Virus record (IMG/VR): IMGVR_UViG_2740892440_000004
Location: 1-40,921 of that record
Origin: a virus
Taxonomy: Duplodnaviria; Heunggongvirae; Uroviricota; Caudoviricetes
DNA length: 40,921 nt
Strand: one strand, 5' to 3'
Position 1 is the first letter of the stretch. The number at the start of each line of letters is the position of its first letter. Below, piece by piece: positions 2,277-40,921 of this stretch. Position numbers and translations under genes: made by a program. The notes under the pieces were generated by a model. It did no database searches. It was not told the DNA's origin and saw nothing but the letters and a program-made list of their open reading frames with translations.

Positions 2277-5200
2277 ATGAAATTTATGAACAGGACCAGT
2301 CCCCATTATTGTCGCCGCTCAGTACTTTCCTTATTGATATCTGCCTTGATATATGCCCCGCCCGGTATGGCGGCCTTCACTCCTGATGTTATTGGTGTGG
2401 TAAACGATGAGACTGTAGATGGCAACCAAAAAGTGGATGAACGAGGTACAACAAATAACACTCATATTATCAACCATGGCCAGCAGAATGTTCATGGCGG
2501 GGTATCTAATGGAAGTCTTATTGAATCTGGTGGATATCAAGATATAGGAAGTCATAACAATTTTGTGGGGCAGGCTAATAATACAACCATTAACGGTGGC
2601 AGACAGTCAATTCATGACGGGGGTATTTCCACAGGTACGACAATCGAGAGTGGCAATCAGGACGTTTATAAAGGGGGTATCAGCAATGGAACGACAATTA
2701 AGGGCGGTGCTTCACGCGTAGAGGGAGGGAGTGCGAATGGAATACTCATTGATGGTGGTAGCCAGATAGTAAAAGTTCAAGGGCATGCTGATGGTACAAC
2801 GATAAATAAGTCTGGCTCTCAGGACGTAGTACAAGGAAGTCTGGCAACGAACACAACCATAAATGGTGGTCGACAGTATGTTGAACAGAGCACAGTAGAA
2901 ACAACAACCATTAAAAATGGCGGTGAGCAAAGAGTATATGAGAGCCGTGCGCTGGACACGACGATTGAAGGCGGAACTCAGTCTCTGAATAGTAAGTCAA
3001 CGGCAAAAATTACGCAGATCTATTCTGGTGGCACGCAAATTGTTGATAACACCAGCACCTCGGATGTTATTGAAGTTTATTCCGGTGGCGTGCTTGATGT
3101 TAGTGGTGGTACGGCAACAAATGTTACCCAGCACGATGGTGCAATTTTAAAAACAAACACTAACGGTACGACGGTGAGCGGTACGAATAGTGAAGGTGCA
3201 TTCTCCATCCACAATAAAGTGGAAGACAATGTGTTGCTGGAAAATGGAGGCCATTTAGAAGTATCTCATTCCGCAAACAAGACGATTATTAAAGATAAAG
3301 GAACAATGTCAGTTTTAACGAATGCTAAAGCTGATGCGACCCGAATAGATAATGGCGGGGTTATGGATGTTGCAGGAAACGCGACAAATACCATAATTAA
3401 TGGTGGCACACAGAATCTTAATAATTATGGCATAGCCACAGGCACCAATATCAACAGCGGAACGCAAAATATCAAAAGCGGTGGGAAAGCTGACACAACA
3501 ATTATATCCTCCGGGAGCCAGCAAGTTGTTGAGAAAGATGGTACGGCAATTGGCAGCAATATTAGCGCCGGAGGCTCGCTGATTGTCTATACCGGCGGTA
3601 TTGCACATGGGGTTAACCAGGAGACGGGCAGTGCTTTAGTTGCCAACACGGGCGCAGGGACTGATATTGAAGGATACAACAAGCTCTCTCACTTCACTAT
3701 TACCGGAGGGGAGGCTAATTATGTTGTGCTGGAAAATACCGGCGAACTGACGGTAGTGGCTAAAACCTCGGCGAAAAATACTACCGTTGATGCTGGCGGT
3801 AAGCTGATTGTCCAGAAGGAGGCTAAAACAGATACCACCAGACTTAATAATGGTGGCGTTCTGGAGGTTCAGGACGGTGGTGAGGCTAAGCATGTTGAGC
3901 AACAATCCGGCGGCGCATTAATTGCTTCCACAACTTCCGGAACCCTTATCGAAGGAACCAACAGTTATGGTGATGCTTTCTACATCAGGAATTCAGAAGC
4001 TAAAAATGTAGTGCTGGAAAACGCTGGCTCATTAACAGTCGTCACTGGTTCCCGGGCAGTTGATACGATTATTAATGCCAACGGCAAAATGGATGTTTAT
4101 GGAAAAGATGTTGGCACTGTACTTAATAGTGCTGGCACCCAAACAATATATGCCAGTGCCACTTCTGATAAAGCAAATATCAAAGGTGGCAAGCAAACGG
4201 TATATGGTTTAGCCACTGAGGCAAATATTGAAAGTGGTGAACAAATTGTTGATGGTGGGTCAACTGACAAAACGCACATCAATGGCGGCACACAAACCGT
4301 TCAGAATTATGGTAAGGCGATCAATACCGATATCGTCTCTGGCCTACAACAAATTATGGCAAACGGGATAGCGGAAGGTTCCATTATTAATGGGTGTTCA
4401 CAGGTAGTTAATGAGGGCGGTCTGGCTGAAAACTCGGTGCTTAATGACGGCGGCACACTCGATGTGCGGGAGAAAGGCAGCGCAACGGGGATACAGCAGA
4501 GTAGCCAGGGCGCTTTGGTTGCAACCACCAGGGCGACGCGGGTCACAGGAACACGCGCGGATGGCGTCGCGTTCAGCATCGAGCAGGGTGCGGCGAACAA
4601 TATCCTGCTGGCAAATGGCGGCGTGTTAACCGTGGAGTCAGACACCTCTTCTGACAAAACACAGGTCAATACGGGCGGACGGGAGATCGTCAAAACAAAA
4701 GCCACTGCGACAGGCACGACGCTCACCGGCGGCGAACAAATCGTCGAGGGGGTGGCGAATGAGACAACGATTAACGACGGCGGAATACAAACAGTTTCAG
4801 CTAACGGAGAGGCAATAAAAACAAAGATCAATGAAGGCGGTACGCTGACAGTTAACGATAATGGCAAAGCGACAGATATCGTCCAGAACAGCGGTGCCGC
4901 TCTCCAGACGAGCACGGCTAACGGTATTGAAATCAGCGGTACTCACCAGTACGGCACTTTTTCCATTTCCGGCAATTTAGCGACCAATATGTTGCTGGAA
5001 AATGGCGGTAATTTATTGGTATTAGCAGGTACCGAAGCTCGCGACTCCACGGTTGGCAGCGGTGGAGCCGCCAACGGCAGTTATCGCAGCTACGGGCTGG
5101 GCGGTCACATTGAAACCGGGATGCGATTTACCGATGGTAACTGGAACCTGACGCCGTATGCATCGTTAACGGGGGTTCACCGCTGATAACCCTGAATATC

Positions 5201-5541
5201 ATTTATCCAATGGCATGGAATCGAAATCAGTCGATACCCGCAGTTTATATCGTGAACTGGGTGCAACGCTGAGTTACAACATGCGTCTGGGGAACGGTAT
5301 GGAAGTTGAGCCGTGGCTGAAGGCGGCTGTGCGCAAAGAATTTGTCGATGATAACCGGGTGAAAGTGAATAGTGACGGTAATTTCGTCAATGATTTGTCG
5401 GGCAGACGTGGAATATACCAGGCAGGTATTAAAGCCTCATTCAGCAGTACGTTAAGCGGGCATCTTGGGGTGGGGTATAGCCATGGTGCCGGTGTGGAAT
5501 CCCCGTGGAACGGGGTAGCTGGTGTGAACTGGTCGTTCTGA
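2277..5541 (+). pseudogene. AIDA-I-type autotransporter adhesin, interrupted by a frameshift near 5170-5183
   Basis: RBS plus ATG at 2277; signal-peptide-like N-terminus; approx. 900 aa of degenerate GG-x-Q-x-V-x-GG / T-T-I-x-GG beta-helical repeats; C-terminal ...GVNWSF ending in aromatic residue typical of OM beta-barrels; passenger frame stops at 5186 and continues in +1 frame (ORF 5215-5541). Confidence 0.7.
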
Positions 5542-5702
5542 CCATCAACGAAAAAGCCACATCTGTGGGCTTTCATGTCACCAGGAGCCGCGGCTCCTTT
5601 GCGTATCCTTTTATGTCTCTTCACCGTCTGGTCGGTGTCCTGCTGAGACTGCTAACTTCCTGTTTTTATTGGTGTTGTCCTTATACCGTCCAATCATGAT
5701 TG

Positions 5703-5720
5703 GCTGGCGGAGTCTGAATT
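5703..5720. repeat. degenerate att-like repeat (gctggcggagtctgaatt); copy 2, probable distal boundary of the P4-like element
   Basis: near-identical to 1537-1554 and related to the tmRNA 3' end fragment at 18123-18167. Confidence 0.3.
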
Positions 5721-5878
5721 TGTATGTTATATCTATGTTTTAATTGGTTATTTATTTAAGTTGTTTTTGTTTGTATACCTAAGCGTATACCAATAGCGGG
5801 GTGCAATACTTATTGAACTTTAAAAAAATCACGCTAAATAGGTCTTCTATATTCAAAAAAACTCTTTTTTCAATAAAT

Positions 5879-5957
5879 TGTTCACACTGTTCACTTTGGA
5901 TTTTTACCATTCAAAATCAAGGAAATAGAAGTTAACTGTACGGTGAAGAGTGAACAG
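5879..5957. repeat. iteron-like octamer cluster (TGTTCACA, TGTTCACT, GGTGAAGA, GTGAACAG), possible P4 crr/ori-like alpha-binding region
   Basis: four copies of a TGTTCAC-type octamer in both orientations within 80 bp immediately beyond the 3' end of the alpha gene; recalled P4 ori/crr iteron is TGTTCACC. Confidence 0.35.
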
Positions 5958-5980
5958 ATAACTCTACATTCTTGTGCCAG

Positions 5981-6010
5981 CAAAAATAAAACCCGGCATC
6001 AGCCGGGTTA
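5981..6010 (-). terminator. rho-independent terminator downstream of the alpha operon
   Basis: perfect hairpin acccggc-atca-gccgggt followed on the minus strand by a T-run (plus-strand A-run 5982-5990). Confidence 0.5.
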
Positions 6011-6017
6011 GTTGTAA

Positions 6018-8351
6018 TTATTTGATTGTTGGCTCATCGCACTTGGGTAGCCAGTCTGCATTACTTTCCTCTTTTAAAGTGAGGTTAGTCTGCATTCCCT
6101 GATTAGTTCGCCGTTTCTCATAATGTAGCCCGTACTCCTTCAGCATGACTGGCAACCCTTTGCCAAACATCGTAAGACTCAGGGTGTTTTTATATCCATT
6201 AGCCTCCATGTATACGAGGTAGGCATGGTAAAGGTAGGTACGTGGCTGGCGTGGGACAATATTGGCGTTCCCCATAAACATGCCGTTGGTGTCAGGTAAT
6301 GCCTCAAGATAGCCACAAAAATCAAATGCTGGATCAGCATCACGCTTGATGGTGAGAGCCTCATCAGAATTCTGCTGCGACTGAAGCAATGTTCTGGCGC
6401 TCATCGGATCGCTGAAACGCTGCATGAGCTGGCGAACAATCACAGCCAGTTCTCGTGCAATTTTATCTTTCAGCTGCGGATCGCGTTCTTCCGGTGCTAT
6501 CTGCTCAGGAAAATGCAGAATAACTCTCCTGCGGGACACACCACCACTGCGATCAGTGAAGCGCATAGGATTATTATTTACGGCCAGGATAACCGCCGGA
6601 ATATGTGTTGAATAAGCATTCTGATATTTGGGGTCCACCGATACCGCATCGCCACCAGTTATAGCCTTAAGCCCGGCGCCGTCGCCGCTCCACTTCTCCT
6701 GATCAGGCAGGCGAATAAGAGAAAAACCTATCAGAGCCGCACGTTCTCGCGGGGACTCCAGCGTTTCAATGGTCGCAGAGGTGGCGTTATCCTCTCCAGC
6801 AAGCATGGTCGCAATTTCAGCCAGAATACTTTTGCCACTTCCACCAGGGCCAGTCACTTCCAGAAAGAGCTGCCAGTCATAGCGATTCGCCAGCACCATA
6901 AATAACGCCGCAAGAATAATGTCGCGTTTTTCTGGCTTGTGTCCGGCAGCCCGGTCCAGCCAGCGCCAGAATGCCGGGGCATGAGTTTCAAGCGTTTCCC
7001 CCTCTACCGGTGGCGTGAAATCGACTTCACACAGGGTACGCAGCCAGTTCTCTTTACAGTGCGGACTAAACAGCCCTGTTCGCGTATCGAGGACGCCATT
7101 ACGAAAACCGATCAGATGACGTGCCGGATTTTGCTGCTGCGGAACAATTAACTTTAATGTTTCCACCAGTGAAGCAATTTTTCCTGAGGAAAACGGTGCA
7201 CCGAGGCGCTGGAAAAGGGCTGCGACATCTCGGGCAAAATCTGACTGAGAAATCACTTTCCACGCTCCAGACTCGTAGCGGGATAAAAGCTGCCCGTTCG
7301 GATCAACCGCCAGTGCATCCCTGTAATGCTCCCGAACCCTCTGAGCTTTTTCGCTGACACTCATCGCTGTGAATTCTGCTTCACTCATTGTGTCGAAAGG
7401 ACTGGCGTTATGTGGCTTCAAAGCCTCAAGAATTGCCTTCCGGGTGGATTCCTCTCCGTATTGGGTAAGCGCATCATTCCAGTCACCAAAAACCGGTGGC
7501 AGCACAATGTCACACTGACACGCTTTTGCAGCAGTTTCAGCCCTGTTCTGGCCTGAACCATTCAGATCGCGGTCCGCTGCAATAATTAACTGATATCCCG
7601 GATACTTGTTATGGGCAACGCTGGCCAGAGAAAGAAAGTTGACCGACGAAAATGCCACCATGACGGCTTCTCCTGTCAGATGACGAATGGTAAGCGCCGT
7701 GGCGTAACCTTCCGCAATCCACATCCTTCTTACAGAACTCCCGCCCCCTTCTATCAGATGATAGGCCTCCTTAACCTGACCTCCTTTAAGAAAACACTTG
7801 CTACCATTGCCACTGATAAGCTGAATATTCACCAGTTCCCCGTCAGCGTTATAGAGCGGGACGATCAAATCACCGGGGTGGAACATCACCCCACCGGTTT
7901 TATGACCTGAAGTCAGCTCATGGCAAATATGCTCCGGGAAACCTTTATGTGTAAGATAAGTATTTCCGGCAGATTCACGCGAGACTTGCAGTAGTCGCGC
8001 GGCAAGTGCTGCTGCCGCCTGTTTCCCGCCATCTGTATCTGCGGTTGACGTCCAGACTCCAGAAGAGGCTGAAGACAGACTATGTGTCAGTCCATGTATC
8101 CTGTCTGCTGCTTCACTGATATCCACATTCAGTACCTTGCTGACAAGCGCTAAACCGTCCCCAGCCCCGCACTGGTTGCAGAACCATGTTCCACGTCCTT
8201 CCAGATCGTCGAAGCGAAAACGATCTTTACCGGCGCAGACCGGACAAGGCTGATGGCGATTTTTCAGTATGTTCATACCCAGCGCTGGCAAAATCCGCGC
8301 CCAGTGACCGCGGGCAGCCTTCACGGCCTGACTGACTTTCATTCCTGACAT
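6018..8351 (-). CDS. P4 alpha-type primase/helicase (replication protein)
   Basis: Zn-finger primase motif CPVCAGKDRFRFDDLEGRGTWFCNQCGAGDG, Walker A GPGGSGKS; approx. 777 aa; start set at the ATG preceded by GAGGGAG rather than the upstream alternative start in the ORF track. Confidence 0.9.
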   Translation of the reverse strand: MSGMKVSQAVKAARGHWARILPALGMNILKNRHQPCPVCAGKDRFRFDDLEGRGTWFCNQCGAGDGLALVSKVLNVDISEAADRIHGLTHSLSSASSGVWTSTADTDGGKQAAAALAARLLQVSRESAGNTYLTHKGFPEHICHELTSGHKTGGVMFHPGDLIVPLYNADGELVNIQLISGNGSKCFLKGGQVKEAYHLIEGGGSSVRRMWIAEGYATALTIRHLTGEAVMVAFSSVNFLSLASVAHNKYPGYQLIIAADRDLNGSGQNRAETAAKACQCDIVLPPVFGDWNDALTQYGEESTRKAILEALKPHNASPFDTMSEAEFTAMSVSEKAQRVREHYRDALAVDPNGQLLSRYESGAWKVISQSDFARDVAALFQRLGAPFSSGKIASLVETLKLIVPQQQNPARHLIGFRNGVLDTRTGLFSPHCKENWLRTLCEVDFTPPVEGETLETHAPAFWRWLDRAAGHKPEKRDIILAALFMVLANRYDWQLFLEVTGPGGSGKSILAEIATMLAGEDNATSATIETLESPRERAALIGFSLIRLPDQEKWSGDGAGLKAITGGDAVSVDPKYQNAYSTHIPAVILAVNNNPMRFTDRSGGVSRRRVILHFPEQIAPEERDPQLKDKIARELAVIVRQLMQRFSDPMSARTLLQSQQNSDEALTIKRDADPAFDFCGYLEALPDTNGMFMGNANIVPRQPRTYLYHAYLVYMEANGYKNTLSLTMFGKGLPVMLKEYGLHYEKRRTNQGMQTNLTLKEESNADWLPKCDEPTIK

Positions 8352-8365
8352 GATGCAGTTCTCCC

Positions 8366-8689
8366 TCAGTGTAAAACCGGCTTTATAATGTGACGGACGC
8401 ATAACTCATCCATTACGGCTATTCCGAGCTGGGAGAGTGCGGGGCAGGACATTAGAGGACCGGATTCCATCAGGTCTGAAAGCAGGGCGCAGGCGATTTC
8501 CATGCCTTTTGTTTGCCCGTGCTGTCGCAGATAAAAACCTTCAAGCTCACGGGCAATGGCGGTTTCAATTTCATCCAGAGTGAGCTGCAGGTGGCGGTTG
8601 TGCTGATGGCAGATACTCAGCCAGGCGCAGGCAACCGCGCGGCGATATAACGCCAGCCGAAGTGAGAGGGGAAGAGTGCGTGATTTCAT
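8366..8689 (-). CDS. hypothetical protein (107 aa) of the satellite early operon
   Basis: ORF whose start overlaps the upstream stop (ATGA) and whose end overlaps the alpha start. Confidence 0.5.
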
Positions 8690-13579: not shown

Positions 13580-15514
13580 ATGTCGTTGCGAGATTTATCT
13601 GGGTGGTTGATTAAGAATCAAGGATTCTTAAGAAAATATCAGGCATTAGTCGCTAACTCGATAAAAGATCAATTTCCAGAGTTAAAATCAGATGTAATCC
13701 CACAGATTAGTTCTGAGGATGTCGGCTATCTTTTAACATGTGCTAGTTCTTTGGCTTTCTCAAGTGATGAGAAATGCCAAGATGCAGCCTTAAGGATTGC
13801 ACAGTATTGCTTATTGAATGAAAAAAGTGAAGCAAGAAAAGATAGTGCTGCATTAATTCTTGATTCATTATCTAATAATCCAGCAATACAACTTGCTGAA
13901 AATAGGGGGTATCTTAACCCTGATTTCGAAGAAAGATTACCCTTAAAGGCTCAGTTAGAACTAACTAAAAGAAAAATTCTATATACAATTGAAATAGATG
14001 CTGATAAGCATATTTATGCTAATAGGTTTCAATCAGAGTTTTGGGATGCGGTACAAGAAAACTCATGGGTTAGTGTCTCTGCTCCTACCTCTGTAGGAAA
14101 ATCATTTATCCTGGAATCTTGGGTGGAGCAGTTTGTAAAAAGAAATAAGAATTGCTTAGTTATTTATATCGTACCAACAAGGGCATTGATTTCAGAAGTA
14201 TATTCTGAGTTGCAAAAACGTTTGGATCCTAATTTAACAAATATAGTTAATATTCAGACACTACCATTGAGTAATGTATACCAGAGCGAAAAATCTAATG
14301 TCTTCATATTTACACAGGAAAGATTAAATTTATTCTACAATCATTTCTCACAAATTCCAAAGATAGACGTCTTAGTTGTTGATGAAGCACACAAGATCGG
14401 TGATGGTGGAAGAGGTGTTATTCTTCAACATGTAATTGAACTGACTTGTCTAAATAACCCTGATTCAAAAGTTATCTTTGCAAGTCCTTTCACCTTAAAT
14501 CCTGAAATATTGCTCAGTGATGCTCCAATATTAAAAAACAAAAGAACTATAAAAAGTGACTATGTTACAGTTAATCAAAATTTAATATGGGTAGAACAAA
14601 AACCACGCAAGACCAAAGATTGGTTGATGTATTATTTTGCAAACGGTGAAAAACGCGAGTTAGGAAACTTTTCTTTAGAAAATGCACCATCTCCTGAAAG
14701 TAAAAGATTGCCTTTTGTAGCTCTTTGTTTAGGTAAGGGGGCTTCTGGTAACGTAGTTTACGTAAATGGAGCCGCTGAAGCAGAATCTACTTCCAAGCTA
14801 ATATCTGCAAGTATAGAAAATGAGACTGAGGATGAAGAAATTTTAGCTCTCGTTGAGCTTAGTGAGACAATTATACATAAAAATTTCGCATTAAATCGCA
14901 CTCTAAAAAAGAGAGTCGCTTTTCATTATGGCAACATGCCTTTAATAATAAAGGGCGAGATTGAACGATTGTTTAGTAAAGGTAAGATTGATTTTTTAAT
15001 TTGTACCTCAACTTTAGTTGAGGGCGTAAACATGGCTTGTAAAAATATTTTTATAAGAGGCCCTAAAAAGGGTAATTCAACCCCGATGCGAGAAGAGGAT
15101 TTTTGGAATCTTGCTGGCAGAGCTGGTCGTTGGGGAAAAGAATTCCAAGGTAATGTCATCTGCATCGATAGCGACAATGAAAAAATTTGGAATGGAGAGC
15201 CTCCAAAAACCAAAAAAAATATATTTATAACTCGCGCCACGGATGCTATTTCCCATGACATGGATAAGTTGGTTTCCTATATTTTTTCAGAGCATCATTT
15301 TGGTATGTCTGAGCGGAATCCTAATCTCCAGAGTCTATTTAGTTATTTATGTTCATCATTTTATTTTTATAATGGCTTGGATAATAATCCTTACATGGAA
15401 AAGTACAATATAAAAAATATCGATGTTTTAAATGAAGCAATATTTGATGTTTTTGATTCTTTAACTTTTCCACACGAATTGGTTGTGCGGCATCCTGGTA
15501 TAAGCCGCTTTTAA
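13580..15514 (+). CDS. cargo protein 2: superfamily-2 DEAH-box helicase (644 aa)
   Basis: motif I APTSVGKS, motif II VVDEAHKI, motif V TSTLVEGVN, motif VI NLAGRAGRWG; starts 2 bp after gene 1. Confidence 0.8.
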   Translation: MSLRDLSGWLIKNQGFLRKYQALVANSIKDQFPELKSDVIPQISSEDVGYLLTCASSLAFSSDEKCQDAALRIAQYCLLNEKSEARKDSAALILDSLSNNPAIQLAENRGYLNPDFEERLPLKAQLELTKRKILYTIEIDADKHIYANRFQSEFWDAVQENSWVSVSAPTSVGKSFILESWVEQFVKRNKNCLVIYIVPTRALISEVYSELQKRLDPNLTNIVNIQTLPLSNVYQSEKSNVFIFTQERLNLFYNHFSQIPKIDVLVVDEAHKIGDGGRGVILQHVIELTCLNNPDSKVIFASPFTLNPEILLSDAPILKNKRTIKSDYVTVNQNLIWVEQKPRKTKDWLMYYFANGEKRELGNFSLENAPSPESKRLPFVALCLGKGASGNVVYVNGAAEAESTSKLISASIENETEDEEILALVELSETIIHKNFALNRTLKKRVAFHYGNMPLIIKGEIERLFSKGKIDFLICTSTLVEGVNMACKNIFIRGPKKGNSTPMREEDFWNLAGRAGRWGKEFQGNVICIDSDNEKIWNGEPPKTKKNIFITRATDAISHDMDKLVSYIFSEHHFGMSERNPNLQSLFSYLCSSFYFYNGLDNNPYMEKYNIKNIDVLNEAIFDVFDSLTFPHELVVRHPGISRF

Positions 15515-16253: not shown

Positions 16254-16711
16254 TCAGGCTATTCCAGAATAGGCTTTGCTTACTTCACTATGCCTTGTGC
16301 CGCAATGCCTCAAAATAACAAGGCCATGTTGCAGTAACGCCTCACTACGTTCAGGTTCAAACCATTTCCCGTTAAATTTTCCTCCGTGAAAAAGATTGTT
16401 TCTTACACGGCGGATTAACAAAAAAAGAAATTTTGCTAAATCTTTTTCTTGTGGTAAAGAATCATCCAAACTAAAGAGTCATCTTCTATGATTTGTTTTT
16501 TGGGTGGGTGTTCTTTAAAGTAGGTGATAGCAGCAATTAGCTCTGGATCAGTTGTGTTATTTATGATTTCAGAAACTTGCTTTGCATACTCATCCCAGTT
16601 CGCTTTAGCATCTTTTATTTTATGATGAAGTCCACATGCCTTAAGGCAATATTCATAACGTGAAAACTCTCTAAAGAATTCATAACATAAATTATCTAGA
16701 TTATTCTCCAT
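16254..16711 (-). pseudogene. HEPN-like small protein (Rx4H motif), split into two ORFs by an apparent 1-bp G-run contraction
   Basis: ORFs 16436-16711 and 16254-16469 overlap; restoring one G in tttgg-atg fuses them into approx. 160 aa; C-terminal part contains IRRVRNNLFHGG, i.e. R-x4-H as in HEPN RNase motifs. Confidence 0.45.
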
Positions 16712-23765: not shown

Positions 23766-26175
23766 GCCATGCCGATATGAACAACTGCTGCGGCTTTAAC
23801 GAGGCTGCCGCAGCGTTCTCATGGAACAGCCCGAAAAAGGCCATTAACCCTTATCTGGACCCGGCGGAAGTTGCGCCGGTTTCTGCGCTTTCAAACCTGA
23901 TCGCTCTGTACGCTGCCGATAACGAGCAGGAACACCTGCGCCGCGAGGCACTGAGTGATCAGGTCTGGGAGCGTTATTTCTTTAATGAATCCCGTGATCC
24001 TGTCCAGCGCGAAATGGAGCAGGATAAGCTCATTAGTCGGGCAAAGCTGGCGCATGAGCAGCAGCGTTTTAATCCAGATATGGTCATTCTGGCGGACGTC
24101 AATGCCCAGCCTTCCCATATCAGCAAGCCGCTGATGCAACGTATTGAATACTTCAGCAGCCTGGGCAGGCCAAAGGCTTATTCCCGCTATTTGCGTGAGA
24201 CGATTAAGCCATGTCTGGAGCGACTGGAGCATGTACGCGACAGCCAGCTATCTGCATCTTTTCGTTTTATGGCAAGCCATGTAGGGCTGGACGGCCTGCT
24301 GATTCTGCCTGAAATGAGTCAGGATCAGGTGAAACGCCTGTCTACTCTTGTCGCTGCGCATATGAGCATGTGTCTTGATGCCGCTTGTGGTGATTTGTAC
24401 GCCACCGATGACGTTAAGCCAGAAGAAATCCGCAAAACATGGGAAAAGGTGGCAGCGGAAACCCTGCGTCTGGATGTTATTCCGCCTGCGTTTGAGCAAC
24501 TCCGTCGGAAAAGAAACCGCCGTCAACCCGTGCCCTATGAACTCATTCCGGGTTCGCTGGCGCGTATGTTGTGTGCCGACTGGTGGTACCGGAAATTATG
24601 GAAAATGCGTTGCGAATGGCGGGAAGAGCAGTTGCGTGCTGTCTGCCTGGTCAGCAAAAAAGCATCTCCCTATGTCAGCTATGAAGCCGTGATTCATAAA
24701 CGTGAGCAGCGCCGCAAGTCACTGGAGTTTTTCCGTTCTCATGAACTGGTGAACGAAGAGGGCGACACGCTGGATATGGAAGACGTGGTAAACGCCAGCA
24801 GCAGCAACCCGGCGCACCGCCGCAATGAGATGATGGCCTGTGTTAAAGGTCTGGAGCTTATCGCGGAAATGCGCGGTGACTGCGCCGTTTTCTACACCAT
24901 TACCTGTCCGTCACGTTTCCATTCCACGCTCAATAACGGCAGACCAAACCCAACCTGGACAAATGCGACGGTAAGACAAAGCAGCGATTATCTGGTCGGC
25001 ATGTTTGCTGCATTTCGTAAGGCGATGCACAAAGCCGGGTTGCGCTGGTATGGCGTGCGGGTGGCTGAGCCGCATCATGACGGTACAGTTCACTGGCACC
25101 TGTTGTGTTTCATGCGCAAAAAAGACCGCCGCGCCATTACTGCATTGTTGCGTAAGTTTGCCATCCGTGAAGACCGCGAGGAACTGGGTAATAACACTGG
25201 TCCACGCTTTAAATCTGAGCTGATAAACCCGCGCAAAGGAACGCCGACAAGCTACATCGCGAAATACATCAGTAAGAACATTGACGGGCGTGGTCTGGCT
25301 GGCGAGATCAGCAAGGAAACGGGTAAATCCCTGCGTGATAACGCTGAATACGTTAATGCCTGGCGTCTCTGCATCGTGTACAGCAATTCCGCTTCTTTGG
25401 TATTCCGGGACGTCAGGCTTACCGTGAACTTCGCTTGCTGGCTGGTCAGGCGGCAAGGCAACAGGGTGACAAAAAAGCAGGTGCGCCGGTACTGGATAAC
25501 CCGCGTCTTGATGCCATTCTGGCTGCTGCTGATGCTGGTTGTTTTGCCACCTACATCATGAAGCAGGGCGGCGTACTGGTTCCCCGCAAATATCACCTCA
25601 TCAGAACCGCTTATGAAATCAACGAAGAGCCGACCGCCTATGGCGATCACGGCATTCGTATTTATGGCATCTGGTCACCCATTGCAGAGGGCAAGATCTG
25701 CACTCATGCAGTGAAGTGGAAAATGGTTCGTAAGGCCGTTGACGTTCAGGAGGCGGCAGCCGACCAGGGCGCTTGCGCCCCTTGGACTCGTGGCAATAAC
25801 TGTCCCCTTGCTGAAAATTTGAACCAACAGGAGAAAGATAAATCAGCTGATGGGGACCCCAGAACGGACATTACCAGCATGGATGACAAGGAGTTGCACG
25901 ATTACCTGCACAGTATGAGCAAAAAAGAGCGCCGGGAACTGGCAGCAAGGTTATGCCTGGTGAAACCGAAACGGCGTAAAGACTACAAACAGCGAATTAC
26001 AGACCATCAGCGACTGCAGCTCGTGTATGAGCTGAAGTCCAGAGGATTTGATGGCAGCGAGAAAGAGGTCGATTTACTCCTTCGCGGAGGCAGTATTCCG
26101 TCAGGAGCAGGCCTGCGTATCTTCTATCGGAGCCAGCGTTTGCAGGAAGATGATCAGTGGCGGAACCTGTATTAA
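23762..26175 (+). pseudogene. P2 gpA-family replication initiation endonuclease, frameshifted at about 25363
   Basis: HUH-like [11 protein letters not shown] and catalytic tyrosines YIAKYISKN; frame a ends in junk after ...EYVNAW while frame b continues [29 protein letters not shown]...; restoring one G in tgg-cg fuses approx. 805 aa. Confidence 0.8.
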
Positions 26176-34531: not shown

Positions 34532-34626
34532 CAGAACGTGCCCCCGCGCACGGGCGGCACGGGGTGGCGAAAGGCATAGCCACATCAAAATCCCGTCCAC
34601 CGCCCTCTATTTCAGGAGAAAGCAGC

Positions 34627-35091
34627 ATGAAGTTTGTTGCGCCAGAACAGGCACCGGAACAGGCGGAAATCATCAGAAATACGCCGTTCTGGCCTGATGT
34701 GGACCTGTCGGAGTTTCGCAGCGTGATGCGCACTGACGGCACGGTGACGCAGCCGCGTTTAAAGCAGGTTGCCCTGTCGGCAATTTCGGAGGTCAACGCA
34801 GAGCTGTATGAGTTTCGCAGACGTCAGCAGATGCTGGGATATGTGTCGCTGGCTGAGGTTCCGGCGGAACAGCTGGACGGCAAAAGTGAGCGCATTCAGC
34901 ACTATTTCAACGCGGTTTACTGCTGGGCACGCGCCATGCTCAACGAACGATACCAGGACTATGACGCCACGGCGTCCGGTGTGAAGCGGGGCGAGGAACT
35001 GGCGGAAGCCAGCGGTGATTTGTGGCGTGACGCCCGCTGGGCCATCAGCCGGGTGCAGGACGCGCCGCACTGCACAGTGGAGCTTATCTGA
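34627..35091 (+). CDS. L: head completion/stabilisation protein (P2 gpL family)
   Basis: AGGAG RBS then ATG 34627; 154 aa. Confidence 0.75.
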   Translation: MKFVAPEQAPEQAEIIRNTPFWPDVDLSEFRSVMRTDGTVTQPRLKQVALSAISEVNAELYEFRRRQQMLGYVSLAEVPAEQLDGKSERIQHYFNAVYCWARAMLNERYQDYDATASGVKRGEELAEASGDLWRDARWAISRVQDAPHCTVELI

Positions 35092-35294
35092 TGAAAGTGC
35101 GTGCGCATCAGTATGACACGGTGGACGCGCTTTGCTGGCGTCATTACGGGCGCACGCAGGGTGTCACGGAGCAGGTACTGAAGGCAAATCCGGGGCTTGC
35201 CGAATACGGCCCCTTTTTACCTCACGGGCTGCAGGTGGAGCTGCCGGACATTCCGACCACCACCACCGTGCAGACCGTCCAGCTATGGGACTGA
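35091..35294 (+). CDS. X: tail protein X (P2 gpX family)
   Basis: 67 aa, ATGA overlap with L. Confidence 0.75.
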   Translation: MKVRAHQYDTVDALCWRHYGRTQGVTEQVLKANPGLAEYGPFLPHGLQVELPDIPTTTTVQTVQLWD

Positions 35295-35297
35295 ATT

Positions 35298-35513
35298 ATG
35301 ACGCTTGAGCGAATCAGCGCCTTTATCACGTATTGCATCGCCGTCGTGCTGGCCTGGCTGGGCGATTTGTCCATCAAGGATGCCTCAACGCTGGGCGGCC
35401 TGATGATTGGTGTGCTGATGCTGGCTATCAACTGGTACTACAAACATAAAGCCTACCAGCTTCTGCGCGACGGGCAGATCTCGCGGGAGGACTATGAATC
35501 CATCAATCGTTAA
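35298..35513 (+). CDS. holin-like small membrane protein
   Basis: 71 aa with two hydrophobic helices and charged C-terminus, immediately upstream of the lysozyme gene. Confidence 0.6.
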   Translation: MTLERISAFITYCIAVVLAWLGDLSIKDASTLGGLMIGVLMLAINWYYKHKAYQLLRDGQISREDYESINR

Positions 35514-36005
35514 ACGCTGCCTTGTCGGGGCCGTGCTGGCTATTACTGCCACGCTGCCGGGTTTTCAGCAGCTTCACACCTCCGTGGAGGGGCTGAAACT
35601 GATTGCTGATTACGAAGCTGTCGTCTGCAGCCGTATCAGTGCAGCGCGGGTGTCTGGACCGACGGCATTGGTAATACGTCGGGCGTCATTCCCGGCAAAA
35701 CCATTACGGAGCGACAGGCAGCAGAAGGGCTGATCTCCAACGTGCTGCGTGTGGAGCGGGCGCTGGAAAGGTGTGTGAAGCAACAGCCGCCGCAGAAGGT
35801 GTATGACGCTGCGGTGTCGTTTGCCTTCAACGTGGGAACGGGCAATGCCTGCAGTTCCACACTGGTGAAATTACTCAATCAGCGGCGCTGGGCGGATGCG
35901 TGCCGACAGTTGCCGCGCTGGGTTTATGTGAAAGGTGTTTTTAATCAGGGGCTGGATAACCGCCGTGCGCGGGAGATGGCCTGGTGCTTACAGGGAGCAA
36001 ACTGA
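35494..36005 (+). pseudogene. endolysin (T4-lysozyme-like, GH24), frameshifted at about 35620
   Basis: third frame restores the lysozyme catalytic region YEG-CRLQPYQCSAGVWTDGIGNT; frame as sequenced stops at 35733; one G missing in gaa-g-ctgt. Confidence 0.8.
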
Positions 36006-36006
36006 A

Positions 36007-36384
36007 ATGAAAAAGAAAGTAATCAGCGGGCTGTTTCTGATGTTATGGATGGCGCTGTTGATCGCAGCAATGGTGTATCCGCAGGGGATTTTTCCGGTAC
36101 TGGCAGCGTCCGGTGTCTGGGTAGCCTGTCTGCTGACATGGGCGGTAATTCCGGTAGCACTGGCTGCGTCAATTAAGAACGGCCCGCTCTGGCAGGAGTT
36201 GAGGGCATCTTTGCTAAAGACCATTACCCGAAAAGAAAACGTATTTATCAGCTGGGTGATGCGATTGCTGATTGTCGTAAGTTTCGCCTGGACGGGGTGG
36301 GCTATTACCCTGGTCTTTTATCTGCTGACCGTTATTGCCTTCTGGATGATCCGTAATCAGATTGCGCAACAGGTAGCAGCATGA
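36007..36384 (+). CDS. LysA-like membrane protein (lysis timing)
   Basis: 125 aa with four hydrophobic segments, position after lysozyme. Confidence 0.6.
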   Translation: MKKKVISGLFLMLWMALLIAAMVYPQGIFPVLAASGVWVACLLTWAVIPVALAASIKNGPLWQELRASLLKTITRKENVFISWVMRLLIVVSFAWTGWAITLVFYLLTVIAFWMIRNQIAQQVAA

Positions 36385-36809
36385 ACCGGTTGCTGCTGGT
36401 TGTGCTGGCGTTATTACTGGCGGCGCTGGGCTGGCAGACGTGGCGGCTGGCTGATGCCAGCCAGACCATCAGCACGCAGGCAGACGAGCTTCGGAGCAAA
36501 AGCCAGGCACTGGCAAAGAGCAACAGCCAGCTTATCAGCCTGTCCATTCTGACTGAAACCAACAACCGGGAGCAGGCGCGGCTCTACGCCGAAGCAGAAC
36601 AGACCAGCGCACTGCTGAGACAACGACAACGCCGGATGGAGGAACTGAAACGTGAGAACGAGGATTTACGCCGCTGGGCTGATACTCCTTTGCCTGCTGA
36701 CATTATCCGGCTGCGGGAACGTCCGGCACTCACCGGAGGTGCAGCTTACCGTCAGTGGTTGTCCGCGAGTGACGCCGTGTCGGCTGGAGCAGGCAGCGCC
36801 GCGCACTAA
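36381..36809 (+). CDS. LysB / Rz-like inner-membrane spanin
   Basis: 142 aa; N-terminal TM helix then coiled-coil-like region. Confidence 0.7.
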   Translation: MNRLLLVVLALLLAALGWQTWRLADASQTISTQADELRSKSQALAKSNSQLISLSILTETNNREQARLYAEAEQTSALLRQRQRRMEELKRENEDLRRWADTPLPADIIRLRERPALTGGAAYRQWLSASDAVSAGAGSAAH

Positions 36810-36942
36810 CGGTGATCTGAACGCATTGCTGGATGAAACGGAGGTCGCCTGGGCGGTCTGTGCAGACAAAGTGGACATGATTATTGCGTGTCAGGAGCGA
36901 AACAGTGAACAAACCACAATCCCTGCGCCACGCCCTCAATAA
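36652..36942 (+). CDS. LysC / Rz1-like outer-membrane lipoprotein spanin, embedded in and extending beyond lysB
   Basis: GGAGG RBS then GTG; lipobox LTLSGC; alternative frame overlapping lysB. Confidence 0.55.
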   Translation: MRTRIYAAGLILLCLLTLSGCGNVRHSPEVQLTVSGCPRVTPCRLEQAAPRTNGDLNALLDETEVAWAVCADKVDMIIACQERNSEQTTIPAPRPQ

Positions 36943-37336
36943 AGCGGTACCTTATGTCCGCAATAACCCGGACAAACTGCATCTGTTTGTGGATAACGGT
37001 TCGCTGGTTGCCACGGGGGCCAGCTCCATGTCATGGGAGTACCGCTATACCCTGAACGTGGTGATAGAGGATTTCAGCGGCGACCAGAATCTGCTGATGG
37101 CCCCGGTTTTGCTGTGGCTTCGGGATAACCAGCCCGATGCCATCAATAACCCGGCGTTACGGGAAAAGCTATTCACCTTTGAGGTGGATATTTTGCGCAA
37201 CGATGTCTGTGATATCAGCCTTAACCTGCAATTGACGGAACGTGTGCTGGTCAGTACTGACGGCAGTGTGTCGAGTGTTGAAGCTGTAGCAGAACCCGAT
37301 GAACCTGAAGAAATGTGGACGGTGAAACGTGGCTGA
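36905..37336 (+). CDS. R: tail completion protein (P2 gpR family)
   Basis: AGGAG RBS then GTG 36905; approx. 143 aa. Confidence 0.7.
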   Translation: MNKPQSLRHALNKAVPYVRNNPDKLHLFVDNGSLVATGASSMSWEYRYTLNVVIEDFSGDQNLLMAPVLLWLRDNQPDAINNPALREKLFTFEVDILRNDVCDISLNLQLTERVLVSTDGSVSSVEAVAEPDEPEEMWTVKRG

Positions 37337-37775
37337 ACTGCAGAAGGTGGACGACTGGCTGAGTGCCTTGCTGGCGAATCTGGAGCCAGCCGCAAGAAGC
37401 CGCATGATGCGCCAGCTGGCGCAGGAACTGCGCCGGACACAGCAGCAGAATATCAGGATGCAGCGCAATCCAGATGGCAGCAGTTATGAACCGCGCAGGG
37501 TAACAGCACGTAGCAAGAAGGGGCGCATCAAACGTCAGATGTTTGCAAAGCTGCGCACCACAAAATACCTGAAAACTGCCGCCAGCGCCGACTCTGCCAG
37601 CGTACAGTTTGAAGGCAAGGTGCAGCGTATTGCCCGTGTTCACCATTACGGCCTGCGTGATCGCGTCAGTCGCAAAGGACCGGAAGTCCGTTACGCAGAG
37701 CGCCGCCTGCTGGGTGTAAATGATGATGTTGAGGCAATGACCCGCGACATGATTCTGCAATGGCTGGCGGGGTGA
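37329..37775 (+). CDS. S: tail completion protein (P2 gpS family)
   Basis: 148 aa overlapping R stop. Confidence 0.75.
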   Translation: MAELQKVDDWLSALLANLEPAARSRMMRQLAQELRRTQQQNIRMQRNPDGSSYEPRRVTARSKKGRIKRQMFAKLRTTKYLKTAASADSASVQFEGKVQRIARVHHYGLRDRVSRKGPEVRYAERRLLGVNDDVEAMTRDMILQWLAG

Positions 37776-37779
37776 TCTT

Positions 37780-37797
37780 TGTATCAGCACTGATACA
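37780..37797 (+). promoter_or_regulatory. TGT-N12-ACA late-promoter activator site upstream of gene V
   Basis: TGTATCAGCACTGATACA, a perfect dyad, 47 bp upstream of the V start. Confidence 0.55.
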
Positions 37798-37843
37798 AGT
37801 TGCAGCACTGCCGCCTTTCTTCCCCTGATGGCAACCTTTCCCT

Positions 37844-38422
37844 ATGAACGCACAATTAACCGAAATCATGCGCCTTATCACCAACCTGATCCGCACAGGT
37901 ATAGTCACCGAAGTGGATCGGGAGAACTGGCTTTGCCGGGTGAAAACGGGCGACCTCGAAACCAACTGGATCAGCTGGCTGACACTGCGTGCCGGGAATG
38001 CCCGGACATGGTGGCGACCATCGGAAGGTGAGCAGGTGGTGCTGCTGAGTCTGGGCGGAAATCTGGAAACAGCCTTTGCGCTGCCCGCTGTCTATTCGAA
38101 TCAGTTTGCACCGCCGTCGACGTCGGCGGACGCCTGCGTGACAGAACATCCTGACGGTGGCTGGTTTGAATATGAACCCGCCACCGGGCGCTGGTATGTC
38201 AGGGGCATCAAATCAATGGTCATTGAGGCCGCTGATAACATCACCATGAAAACCAGTGAGTTTGTACTGGAGGCTGACCGCACGCGCATTAACAGCGAAG
38301 TGGTGATCAATGGTGGCGTTACCCAGGGCGGCGGAGCGATGAGTTCTAACGGGATTGTGGTTGATGCACATCAGCATACTGGCGTCCTGAAAGGCGGCGA
38401 CACAACCGGAGGCCCGGTATGA
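37844..38422 (+). CDS. V: baseplate spike protein (P2 gpV family)
   Basis: 192 aa; conserved ...TWWRPSEGEQVVLLSLGGNLETAFALPAVYS... and C-terminal HQHTG. Confidence 0.8.
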   Translation: MNAQLTEIMRLITNLIRTGIVTEVDRENWLCRVKTGDLETNWISWLTLRAGNARTWWRPSEGEQVVLLSLGGNLETAFALPAVYSNQFAPPSTSADACVTEHPDGGWFEYEPATGRWYVRGIKSMVIEAADNITMKTSEFVLEADRTRINSEVVINGGVTQGGGAMSSNGIVVDAHQHTGVLKGGDTTGGPV

Positions 38423-38778
38423 CGCTTTATAGCGGGATGAACAATACCAGCGGTAAAGCCATTACTGATATTGACCATCTGCGCCAGTCGGTGCGGGACA
38501 TTTTGCTGACGCCGCAGGGTAGCCGCATTGCCCGTCGGGAATATGGTTCCCTGCTGTCGGCACTGATAGACCAGCCACAAAATCCGGCATTACGCCTGCA
38601 GGTCATGTCGGCAGTGTATGTGGCGCTGAGTCGCTGGGAGCCACGGCTGACGCTGGATTCCATCACCATTAACAGCAATTTTGACGGTTCAATGGTGGTG
38701 GAGCTGACCGGGCGGCGTAATAACGGTGTGCCTGTTTCCCTTTCCGTATCAACAGGAGCAGAGAATGGCAGTGATTGA
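38419..38778 (+). CDS. W: baseplate wedge protein (P2 gpW / gp25-like)
   Basis: 119 aa overlapping V stop. Confidence 0.8.
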   Translation: MTLYSGMNNTSGKAITDIDHLRQSVRDILLTPQGSRIARREYGSLLSALIDQPQNPALRLQVMSAVYVALSRWEPRLTLDSITINSNFDGSMVVELTGRRNNGVPVSLSVSTGAENGSD

Positions 38779-39673
38779 CCTTTCGCAGTTGCCTGCGCCG
38801 CAGATTGTCGATGTGCCGGACTTTGAGACGCTGCTTGCCGAACGCAAGGCCGAATTTGTTGCGCTTCATCCGAAAGATGAGCAGGAAGCAGTGATCCGCA
38901 CGCTGGAACTGGAATCTGAACCCGTCACCAAATTGCTGCAAGAGAACGCTTATCGTGAGCTGCTTCTGCGCCAGCGCATTAACGAAGCCGCGCAGGCGGT
39001 GATGGTGGCTTATGCGATGGGCGGCGATCTGGACCAGCTCGCCGCCAATTACAACGTGAAACGCCTGACGGTGATACCTGCTGATGATGACGCTGTGCCG
39101 CCCGTTGCGGCTGTGATGGAAAGCGATGAAGCGTTACGCCTGCGTGTGCCTGCAGCCTTTGAGGGGCTTTCAGTTGCGGGGCCAACTGCAGCTTATGAAT
39201 TTCATGCCCGAAGCGCCGACGGTCGGGTGGCGGATGCCAGTGCAACCAGTCCGGCCCCTGCAGAGGTGGTGCTGACTGTCCTGAGTCGCGAAGGCGACGG
39301 AACAGCAGAAAAAGACCTGCTGGATGTGGTGGAGAACGCCCTGAACAGTGAGAACGTCCGCCCGGTGGCTGACCGTCTGACGGTTCGCAGCGCAGAAATC
39401 ATCCCGTACCGCGTGGAAGCCACCATTTTTCTCTATCCGGGACCGGAAGCAGAGCCGGTAATGGCAGCGGCAAAAGCCAGTCTGCAGAAGTACATCGCCA
39501 GTCAGACGCGTCTTGGCCGGGATATTCGCCGTAGCGCCATCTTTGCCGCCCTGCATGTTGAGGGTGTGCAGCGTGTGGAGCTGGCTTCGCCGCTGGCGGA
39601 TGTGGTCCTGAACAAAACACAGGCGGCATCATGTACGCAGTGGAGCGTAACCAACGGAGGAACGGATGAATAG
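38765..39673 (+). CDS. J: baseplate protein J (P2 gpJ family)
   Basis: ATG 38765; approx. 302 aa. Confidence 0.8.
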   Translation: MAVIDLSQLPAPQIVDVPDFETLLAERKAEFVALHPKDEQEAVIRTLELESEPVTKLLQENAYRELLLRQRINEAAQAVMVAYAMGGDLDQLAANYNVKRLTVIPADDDAVPPVAAVMESDEALRLRVPAAFEGLSVAGPTAAYEFHARSADGRVADASATSPAPAEVVLTVLSREGDGTAEKDLLDVVENALNSENVRPVADRLTVRSAEIIPYRVEATIFLYPGPEAEPVMAAAKASLQKYIASQTRLGRDIRRSAIFAALHVEGVQRVELASPLADVVLNKTQAASCTQWSVTNGGTDE

Positions 39674-40271
39674 TCTGCTGCCACCGGGTTCAACTTCACT
39701 GGAGCGCCGACTGGCGCAAACCTGCAGCGGGATTTCTGATTTGCAGGTGCCGCTGCGTGACTTGTGGAATCCAACGACCTGTCCGGTCAGTTTCCTGCCT
39801 TATCTCGCCTGGGCGTTCTCTGTGGATCGCTGGGACGAGGACTGGACGGAAAGTGTCAAACGCCAGGTGGTGAAGGATGCTTTTTATATTCATCAGCATA
39901 AAGGAACCACCAGTGCCGTGCGGCGGGTAGTGGAACCGTTCGGCTTCCTGATCCGCATTATTGAGTGGTGGCAGACCGGAGAAACACCAGGCACGTTTCG
40001 CCTGGATATCGGCGTGCAGGATCAGGGCATCACTGAAGATACCTATCTGGAACTTGAGCGACTGATAAGCGATGCCAAACCCTGCAGCCGTCACATGATC
40101 GGCATGTCCATCAATCTGCAGACCAGCGGCCCGCATTGGGTGGGAGCCGCCAGTTATCTTGGCGAAGAAATCACGATCTATCCGTATATCAACGAAACAA
40201 TTATTTCCGGCGGCACCGCGCATGAAGGCGGGGCGGTCCATGTTATTGACACAATGAGAGTGAATCCATGA
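39666..40271 (+). CDS. I: baseplate/tail protein I (P2 gpI family)
   Basis: 201 aa overlapping J stop. Confidence 0.75.
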   Translation: MNSLLPPGSTSLERRLAQTCSGISDLQVPLRDLWNPTTCPVSFLPYLAWAFSVDRWDEDWTESVKRQVVKDAFYIHQHKGTTSAVRRVVEPFGFLIRIIEWWQTGETPGTFRLDIGVQDQGITEDTYLELERLISDAKPCSRHMIGMSINLQTSGPHWVGAASYLGEEITIYPYINETIISGGTAHEGGAVHVIDTMRVNP

Positions 40272-40921
40272 GCACAAAATTTTATACCCTGCTGACGGAT
40301 ATTGGCGCGGCGAAACTTGCCAGCGCCGCCGCGCTCGGTGTGCCTTTAAAAATTACCCATATGGCGGTCGGCGATGGCGGCGGAACATTACCAACGCCGG
40401 GCGCAAAGCAGACAGCACTGGTAAATGAGAAACGCCGGGCTGCGCTGAATATGCTCTATATCGACCCGCAGAACAGCAGCCAGATTATTGCTGAACAGGT
40501 GATCCCTGAAAACGAGGGCGGTTGGTGGATACGTGAAGTGGGCTTGTTTGATGAGTCCGGGGCATTGATTGCCGTGGGTAACTGCCCGGAAAGCTATAAG
40601 CCGCAACTGGCTGAAGGCAGTGGGCGTACCCAGACCGTGCGCATGGTGCTGATTACCAGTAGTACGGACAATATCATCCTGAAAATCGACCCTGCTGTAG
40701 TGCTGGCAACCCGCAAGTATGTGGATGACAAAATATCAGAGCACGAACAGTCACGACGTCACCCGGACGCCTCGCTGACTGCAAAAGGTTTTACTCAGTT
40801 AAGCAGTGCGACCAACAGTGAATCCGAAATACTGGCCGCAACACCGAAGGCTGTGAAGGTGCATATGATCTTGCAGCAGGTAAAGCATCCGCCAGTCACA
40901 CACACCCGTGGAATCAGATAA
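40268..40921 (+). pseudogene. H: tail fibre protein (P2 gpH family) N-terminal part; frameshifted at about 40850 and cut by the window end
   Basis: N-terminus MSTKFYTLLTDIGAAKLASAA...MAVGDGGG...EHEQSRRHPDASLTAKGFTQLSSATNS typical of P2-like fibres; after ...AATPKAVK the frame runs to a stop, while the +2 frame continues GAYDLAAGKASASHTHPW. Confidence 0.75.

Follow-up and report, generated by a model that had tools for sequence, protein, structure and literature searches.

The 40,921-nucleotide stretch of DNA analysed here (IMG/VR record IMGVR_UViG_2740892440_000004; hereafter the window) carries P2-like prophage genes, a P4-like satellite and a Hachiman system, and many of its genes are interrupted by frameshifts. 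The question raised by the locus is whether these breaks are mutations carried by the organism or were introduced when its genome was sequenced. A first-pass annotation had listed eight such breaks, had described most of them as contractions of G/C runs, and had ascribed them to a systematic error rather than to decay. Seven of the eight are indeed present in the window, no more than about 20 nt from the positions given for them, and each comes down to the loss of one G or C (in one case a lone C). The eighth, in ypjA, is an additional G, which is inherited and is not a contraction.

Over its full 40,921 bases the window aligns collinearly with GCA_958315865.1, an assembly that was obtained independently and is almost clonal with it. 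The two sequences differ by 3 substitutions and by 11 indel events totalling 12 nt, and in all 11 it is G or C that is missing from the window (ten one-base events and one two-base event). Over the 40.9 kb no insertion, A/T indel or larger lesion was found relative to this assembly. The probability that all 11 events would be deletions is about 5e-4, and that all 11 would remove G/C about 3e-4. The 11 sites include four that had been missed in the first inspection, at 2216, 5557, 15505 and 18070. Eight of the deletions are in coding sequence, in proportion to the coding density, and the remaining three (2216, 5557 and 18070) are non-coding.

Among the P2-like prophage genes, the P2-type integrase gene (minus strand) has GG reduced to G at 20153 and is split into 19311-20087 (258 aa) and 20141-20332 (63 aa); the repaired protein has 340 aa. 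The replication endonuclease gpA (plus strand) is cut to 599 aa (23762-25561) by a GGG to GG change at 25362..25363, and has 804 aa after repair. In the gene of the portal protein gpQ (minus strand) the loss of a C at 29439 (CC to C) leaves the fragments 29422-30060 and 29036-29431, and restoring the base yields an ORF of 342 aa (341 aa from the annotated ATG). The lysozyme gene, gpK (plus strand), is split into 35494-35733 and 35742-36005 by a GG to G change at 35617, with a repaired length of 170 aa; this deletion was absent from every aligned locus fetched for the 87-aa lysozyme fragment. Tail fibre gene H (plus strand, start at 40268) has lost the lone C of GGCTG at junction 40859..40860, where relatives read GAAGGCTGCAT and the window reads GAAGGTGCAT, and the resulting frameshift creates a stop at 40919-40921.

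In the P4-like satellite, the sid-like/Psu gene (plus strand; family PF07455, Psu) carries a GG to G change at 10703, and the remaining ORF is 10703-11386. With the base restored, an ORF of 261 aa (250 aa from the annotated ATG) is obtained. The position of this deletion directly follows a GCGAAGC element. In the Hachiman system hamA was confirmed at 12637-13578, and the gene of the helicase HamB (plus strand) is split by a CCC to CC change at 15505..15506 into 13580-15514 (644 aa) and 15514-16161 (215 aa). Repaired HamB has 860 aa; this site had been overlooked in the first-pass annotation. Public contigs fetched for the 215-aa HamB fragment had, where checked, other lesions and not the deletions of the window. 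A HEPN-like gene of 152 aa (minus strand) is broken into 16436-16711 and 16254-16469 by a CCC to CC change at 16466..16467, which leaves GG on the coding strand, and restoring the base gives the 152-aa ORF found in relatives. One member of the cluster of this 152-aa protein is named 'Apea-like HEPN domain-containing protein' in one source. A Pfam search of the cargo proteins (353, 231, 215, 173 and 152 aa) returned no matches. The earlier warning that ORF boundaries elsewhere were provisional was thus justified for hamB, whereas the other cargo genes match GCA_958315865.1 exactly.

Three deletions are non-coding. At 2216..2217, about 70 nt before the true start of ypjA (ATG at 2286), GGG in K-12 and in relatives is GG in the window, and the loss artificially joins an upstream 39-codon ORF to ypjA, giving a 1027-aa ORF (2103-5186). 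At 5557..5558 a CCC to CC change affects the left arm of the hairpin GCCCACA..TGTGGGC, which lies 16 nt past the stop codon of the beta-barrel remnant of ypjA and whose otherwise perfect stem is spoiled by the missing base. At 18070 two bases are missing (GGG in relatives, G in the window) from the intergenic hairpin AAGCCC GCA GGGCTT, which has the satellite integrase (16741-17940) on one side and the attachment site derived from ssrA on the other.

The undeleted allele was present in 9-24 other fetched loci at each of the 11 sites, and homologues of the broken genes are single ORFs (250, 860, 152, 340, 804, 341 and 170 aa). Restoring one base at each of the seven sites gives full-length ORFs that match intact genes in relatives, as the first-pass annotation had anticipated, and the comparison with related genomes that it had recommended returned undeleted alleles at seven of its eight sites, ypjA being the exception. 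Exact matches were found on 19 public contigs for the repaired gpA (804 aa) and on 131 for the 340-aa repaired integrase, as against just 1 to 4 or 5 short contigs for the truncated forms. The deleted alleles recur only in the source contig of the window and in Logan contigs of two read sets, SRR1599278 and SRR2550166. One further scaffold was flagged at 20153, but its lesion is a different 12-bp deletion.

The autotransporter gene ypjA (plus strand) differs in this respect. It has GGGGG at 5171..5175, where K-12 ypjA has GGGG, and the frameshifting extra G sits downstream of the junction (5056..5068) of an internal deletion of about 1.3 kb that removed K-12 residues 931-1366. Judged by sequence comparison, the break is a genuine inherited lesion, neither a contraction nor an artefact, because the ypjA sequence is identical in the four closest RefSeq relatives and in GCA_958315865.1. 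It is almost certainly the sole real lesion in the window.

Frameshifted cryptic prophages are common in E. coli, a real inherited frameshift is present in ypjA within the same window, and all 11 deletion sites are in dispensable DNA. These facts would fit a cryptic P2-like prophage and P4-like satellite decaying by real frameshift mutations. However, decay should leave several kinds of mutation, with more substitutions than indels, and against the near-clonal genome the ratio of indels to substitutions is 11:3, with no insertions, A/T events or larger lesions. None of the 11 deletions is shared by any relative outside the data of the same strain, non-coding DNA was hit as readily as genes, and the existence of a clean twin assembly implies that accurate reads lack the deletions. 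Moreover, the paper describing the source genome itself reports remaining artificial indels (PMC5517970). Taken together, these observations make genuine decay very improbable.

The window comes from JUDW01000001.1, a contig in the draft assembly of E. coli strain RCE02, and is 100% identical to this contig over positions 1-18351 and 26381-40921 (32.9 kb compared). The RCE02 draft belongs to a Crohn's disease E. coli collection. For this genome (JUDW00000000) an Ion Torrent PGM was used with the 318 chip and the 200 kit v2, reads from three colonies were pooled, and the assembly was made with MIRA 4.0; a correction step cut artificial indels only about 2.5-fold, and the authors call this correction partial (PMC5517970). 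For this platform a class of high-frequency indels has been described that are single-base and mainly C/G deletions, occur about once per 1-2 kb and result in frameshifts in assemblies; 82% of the strand-asymmetric ones were in 2-3-mers, most were specific to a run with an overlap between runs greater than chance, and a sequence motif was suspected but none was named (Bragg et al. 2013, PLoS Comput Biol 9:e1003031).

The mechanism proposed in the first-pass annotation was homopolymer under-calling. In its classical form, typical of consensus sequences from long reads or flow-based chemistry, this error is length-dependent and longer runs are increasingly shortened. Ion Torrent chemistry is flow-based, and in 10 of the 11 cases the loss does fall in a homopolymer. 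This explanation nevertheless failed on run length: the affected runs are 2-3-mers in those ten events and one event removes a lone C, whereas no length differs from that in GCA_958315865.1 among the 132 G/C runs of at least 4 bases (an 8-mer included) or the 65 A/T runs of at least 6 bases. The errors occur in GCC/GGC contexts, mostly AG-CC. The base preceding the C-run was G in 16 of 18 cases, and AG preceded it in 11 of 18 (9.4% expected, P = 8e-8), which suggests that the neighbouring bases and not the run length govern the errors. Flow-call length errors were, in addition, kept apart from high-frequency indels as a separate class (Bragg et al. 2013). We therefore assign length-dependent under-calling a negligible probability.

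The Logan contigs of SRR1599278 and SRR2550166 show the same type of change. Compared with the repaired window they contain no substitutions and 15 deletions in 32.8 kb, each of one G or C. Of the window sites that could be tested, 3 of 6 were present in the SRR1599278 set and 2 of 2 in the SRR2550166 set, and the other deletions differ between the sets. Deletion sites coincide between the window and these sets far more often than chance would allow, with P values from 2e-8 to 2e-3 according to how the site universe is defined. These two sets are probably colony runs of RCE02 on the Ion Torrent platform; a literature search for the two run numbers gave no hits. The deletion density is 1 per 3.7 kb in the window and 1 per 2.2 kb in the contigs built from single runs, values that are likely to reflect the partial indel correction by the authors. 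In about 4 kb of JUDW01000001.1 upstream of the window there were no additional deletions, with about 1 expected at that length.

The strongly non-random sequence context, and the different but overlapping subsets of deletions in read sets on one background, could also be accounted for by a real -1 deletion process targeted to AG-CC or GGC in the E. coli of the patient, with colonies carrying overlapping subsets. Candidates for such a process are slippage by an error-prone polymerase, a frameshift mutagen and a mismatch-repair defect, and overproduction of Pol IV as well as acridine-type mutagens are reported to favour -1 events in G:C runs. Against this, one event per 1.5-3.7 kb with no substitutions is unlike known mutators, long runs, which should be the chief targets of slippage or of a mismatch-repair defect, were untouched, and at least one site (21843) does not fit a simple tree that joins the window to SRR1599278 and SRR2550166. 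The density would be lethal if extrapolated genome-wide; the argument from viability (one frameshift per 2-4 kb over the genome) is not directly applicable to the window, because it contains no essential gene. Finally, this signature is on record as an artefact of Ion Torrent sequencing, the platform from which the data come. A real motif-targeted process as the source of the deletions is thus extremely improbable. There is a very small chance that some of the deletions are real, produced by a -1 process at AG-CC or GGCT in prophage and satellite DNA that diversifies the E. coli of one Crohn's patient, with the overlaps representing clonal heterogeneity. The AG-CC context may instead be the motif behind the Ion Torrent high-frequency indels, which would be much likelier than a real diversifying process.

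Several more specific sources were considered and rejected. A mismatch-repair mutator should have produced long-run hits, insertions and many transitions, none of which was seen, and a frameshift mutagen or -1 slippage of the Pol IV type is made very unlikely by the density, the lack of substitutions and the documented platform. Band compression in Sanger sequencing was suggested by the stable GCGAAGC element at 10703 and by the hairpins at 5557 and 18070, but the same deletions are in the SRA contigs and the platform is known. Consensus errors of PacBio or nanopore sequencing can be dismissed since the paper settles the platform, and k-mer contigs of 5-21 kb could not, by our estimate, be obtained from noisy long reads. 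The GGC-motif errors of Illumina sequencing are miscalls rather than consensus deletions. For that platform a review mentions only that indels are more frequent in GC-rich stretches, for example GGCGGG.

We conclude, with a probability of roughly 97 per cent, that the 11 G/C deletions are consensus errors of Ion Torrent PGM sequencing which persisted in the MIRA draft and belong to the high-frequency indel class. The data come from a PGM, and the events are C/G deletions, nearly all of a single base, that lie mainly in short runs, are absent from the independent assembly, and are largely run-specific yet overlap more than by chance if, as we infer, the runs come from the same strain. A C or G of a 2-3-base run would have been dropped in a substantial fraction of the reads that span the position, often on one strand only, so that the wrong length would win the consensus, and deletions in coding sequence would then give frameshifts resembling pseudogenes. 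The attribution of the breaks to systematic sequencing or assembly error and not to decay therefore holds, given the near-clonal assembly without the 11 deletions, the Ion Torrent source and the signature of the type described by Bragg et al. Judging from the comparison with GCA_958315865.1, the P2-like prophage genes of the window, the P4-like satellite and its Hachiman system are almost certainly intact in the organism.

The finding is a sequencing artefact, and its value is in quality control and not in biology. Annotators of the contig would wrongly score the P2-like prophage, the P4-like satellite and the Hachiman system as defective; a corrected sequence for the entire window can be obtained from GCA_958315865.1. 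Were the rate in the window, some one spurious frameshift in 3.7 kb, to apply throughout a genome of about 5 Mb, more than 1,000 false pseudogenes would result, and these would skew comparisons of gene content, for example with the Crohn's disease collection. Because the errors in these data concentrate at C-runs that follow AG (AGCC/GGCT), this context could be used for filtering in any new work with old Ion Torrent assemblies.

Among known systems, programmed ribosomal frameshifting in phage genes also involves two overlapping frames that encode one protein family, but relatives encode each protein in one uninterrupted frame, so that the breaks do not represent conserved sites of recoding. 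The decay of cryptic prophages, as in the K-12 CP4-57 region beside ypjA, is similar in that phage genes of an integrated element are broken at the ssrA/ypjA locus, and the ypjA remnant of the window is a real case of decay; such decay is shared by relatives and of mixed mutation types, whereas the 11 deletions of the window are confined to the Ion Torrent data of one strain and are of one type. Length miscalls of 454, of Ion Torrent flow calls and of early PacBio/ONT sequencing likewise combine an indel in a run with a spurious frameshift, and the window differs from them in having no long-run, over-call or A/T events. The likeness to Ion Torrent high-frequency indels extends to the C/G deletions, the 2-3-base runs, a frequency of about 1 per 1-4 kb, the recurrent sites and the frameshifts. 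The present case differs in that the hits cluster at C-runs preceded by G, mostly by AG (AGCC/GGCT), and in that the set in the window is the residue that survived the correction by the authors.

The window is a segment of the E. coli chromosome downstream of ileY and contains no essential genes. It starts with a ypjCB-family gene (1-1374) and a degenerate ypjA autotransporter gene (2286-5541), which are followed by a P4-like satellite (about 6018-17940) encoding a primase, AlpA, an Icd-like protein, two Psu-family proteins, ogr/delta, HamA and HamB, a 152-aa HEPN-like protein and an integrase. The rest is a P2-like prophage, present from the integrase side through the tail fibre gene H (18253 to the end of the window). 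A 45-nt copy of the ssrA 3' end (about 18123-18167) separates the two elements, indicating tandem integration of both at a shared tmRNA attachment site. Strain 789 has the satellite alone, adjoining an intact ssrA.

The window was aligned to eleven annotated RefSeq loci. Each indel separating it from all references covering the site was a deletion in the window, located at 2216, 5557, 10703, 15505, 16466, 18070 (two bases), 20153, 25362, 29439, 35617 and 40860. The first-pass annotation had listed eight genes broken by single-base frameshifts; seven of these breaks are among these deletions, lying within about 20 nt of the positions it gave, and it had overlooked four deletions, one at 15505, which splits the Hachiman helicase gene hamB, and three in non-coding sequence (2216, 5557 and 18070). 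When the missing bases were restored, the ORFs became as long as their intact counterparts in relatives: Psu 261 aa (250 from the annotated ATG), HamB 860, HEPN-like protein 152, P2 integrase 340, gpA 804, portal 342 (341 from the annotated ATG) and lysozyme 170 aa. Depending on the site, the undeleted allele was present in 9 to 24 fetched loci. Exact copies of the repaired gpA and integrase were found on 19 and 131 public contigs, respectively, whereas the truncated forms occurred on only one to a handful of short contigs.

A near-clonal assembly (GCA_958315865.1, contig CATSHG010000005.1) was found by exact match of the 353-aa cargo protein, the terminase and the primase of the window, and its sequence was stitched from three fetched pieces. 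It is collinear with the window over the full 40,921 bases, in which the window differs from it by three substitutions (2935, 5652 and 36566) and just the 11 deletion events, together removing 12 bases; across the same length the window has no insertion relative to it and no further indel. In the left 18 kb, the reference genomes have 0-4 private substitutions relative to one another and essentially no single-base indels. Natural divergence or pseudogene decay was considered and rejected, as neither the 11:3 ratio of indels to substitutions nor indels consisting solely of G/C loss fits such an origin. Judged from these sequence comparisons, the frameshifts at the deletion sites are sequencing artefacts, the break in ypjA excepted. 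The caution that ORF boundaries, including those of the cargo genes, were provisional proved justified for hamB, but because no other indel separates the window from the clean assembly, the remaining ORFs, cargo genes included, can be trusted. The suggestion that prophage and satellite may be functional agrees with the near-clonal assembly, in which the P2-like prophage genes, the satellite and the Hachiman genes are intact.

The eighth break, in ypjA, had also been ascribed to base loss, and here the interpretation failed. Compared with K-12, the gene has lost 1.3 kb internally (K-12 residues 931-1366; junction at about 5056-5068) and has, downstream of this deletion, one additional G (GGGG to GGGGG, 5171-5175), an expansion rather than a contraction. 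The lesion is identical in sequence in the four closest RefSeq relatives, in whose genomes PGAP calls ypjA incomplete or frameshifted, and in GCA_958315865.1; the break is therefore real and inherited. The true start of ypjA is the MNRTSP... codon at 2286. A 39-codon 'hypothetical protein' is annotated upstream of it in several RefSeq genomes (window 2103-2222). The 1027-aa ORF at 2103-5186 is misleading and partly an artefact, since only the deletion at 2216 fuses the 39-codon ORF in frame to ypjA.

The satellite carries a Hachiman pair (12637-16711), hamA (313 aa, PF08878) and hamB (860 aa when repaired), beside the 152-aa gene, whose cluster has a member named 'Apea-like HEPN' by one source. 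All three genes lie between ogr/delta and the integrase gene, an interval that corresponds to a described cargo hotspot of P4-like satellites. In three unrelated read sets (L015, L017 and L018; SRR17839128, ERR8084999 and SRR35085102) hamB has a different lesion, an A6 run shortened to A5 at the equivalent of 15412, about 90 nt upstream of the artefact in the window, leaving fragments of 616 and 215 aa. Given its recurrence in three data sets, this shortening may truly inactivate Hachiman in another lineage. The P2-like prophage has a 353-aa cargo gene beside its integrase gene (18253-19314) and a trio encoding 231, 215 and 173 aa that is flanked by the DinI-like and portal genes (27132-29005); no Pfam match was obtained for any of these four. 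At the DinI-portal position the cargo of relatives differs, and includes TIR/SEFIR, an AAA ATPase with an S8 peptidase, a dsDNA nuclease, GAPS4, DndB and GmrSD, while SIR2 is found elsewhere, at another hotspot flanked by the genes for gpS and gpV (loci L039 and L042). An independent ENA metagenome scaffold (L021, AUGU21-1_SAMEA6085151) lacks 12 bp of the integrase gene at the very place of the artefact in the window (equivalent to 20152); the surrounding sequence, GATAGGCGTCGCCGATC, holds a GGCG/CGCC inverted repeat, and the deletion is either real or another assembly artefact.

The short contigs encoding the truncated products are Logan assemblies of SRR2550166 (L013) and SRR1599278 (L014 and L050), with zero substitutions relative to the repaired window. 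SRR1599278 shares the deletions at 15505, 16466 and 29439, is undeleted at 20153, 25362 and 35617, and has extra deletions at 17937, 20483, 21843, 30180, 31854, 35010 and 37135. SRR2550166 shares 20153 and 25362 and has extra deletions at 21124, 21843 and 22080. Together the two runs have 15 events in 32.8 kb, each the loss of one G or one C. Far more sites are shared than chance would give, even with the universe confined to positions in the favoured context (P = 0.0015 and 0.0067), and site 21843, common to both runs and absent from the window, is incompatible with a simple tree. A systematic chemistry error would be expected to produce just this: hot positions that recur but differ from run to run although the genetic background is identical.

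The core of the earlier claim, a sequencing artefact rather than decay, is borne out by the clean assembly, the error signature and the Ion Torrent source, but its proposed mechanism, homopolymer under-calling, is not. All deletion events fall in runs of 1-3 bases, whereas all 132 G/C runs of at least four bases, one of them an 8-mer, and all 65 A/T runs of at least six have the same length as in the clean assembly. Viewed on the C strand, 16 of the 18 shortened runs follow a G (38% expected, P = 1e-5) and 11 of the 18 follow AG (9.4% expected, P = 8e-8). The correct long runs and this context preference show that the problem is not the classical, length-dependent one but a motif-dependent loss of C/G in short runs. 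Small stable secondary-structure elements lie in or beside three deletions (5545-5570, 10693-10703 and 18058-18078): the hairpins GCCCACA..TGTGGGC and AAGCCC-GCA-GGGCTT, and GCGAAGC, known to form a very stable mini-hairpin in DNA. The error may owe something to local structure as well as to the AG|CC context.

When all fetched loci were scanned for the deleted alleles, all six left-hand deletions were found in L044, a locus on contig JUDW01000001.1 (GCA_001630825.1) that is 100% identical to window 1-18351; L080, on the same contig, is 100% identical to 26381-40921. A further 161 nt beyond the window, the contig stops within gene H, where the sequence repeats itself in two similar segments, each closing with CAGTCACACACACCCGTGGAAT (window 40769-40921; L080 14380-14702); this internal repeat is the probable cause of the break in the assembly. 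E. coli RCE02, the strain behind JUDW00000000, comes from ileal aspirate taken from a patient with Crohn's disease (Rakitina et al. 2017, BMC Genomics 18:544, PMC5517970). It was sequenced on the Ion Torrent PGM (318 chip, 200 kit v2) and assembled with MIRA 4.0 from pooled reads of three colonies; the authors, who cite Bragg et al. for the indel problem, used a correction tool that lowers artificial indels only about 2.5-fold (PMC5517970). Deletion density is one per 3.7 kb in the window and one per 2.2 kb in the single-run contigs, a difference that would fit a partly corrected assembly, and we infer that the errors extend genome-wide. The 'high-frequency indel' errors of the PGM are single-base events; among those that are strand-asymmetric, 82% fall in 2-3-mers, with C and G deletions dominant. 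The errors occur about once per 1-2 kb, are mostly unique to one run, with an overlap between runs above chance that possibly reflects a motif, and give frameshifts in assemblies (Bragg et al. 2013). The deletions in the window are exactly of the class described there.
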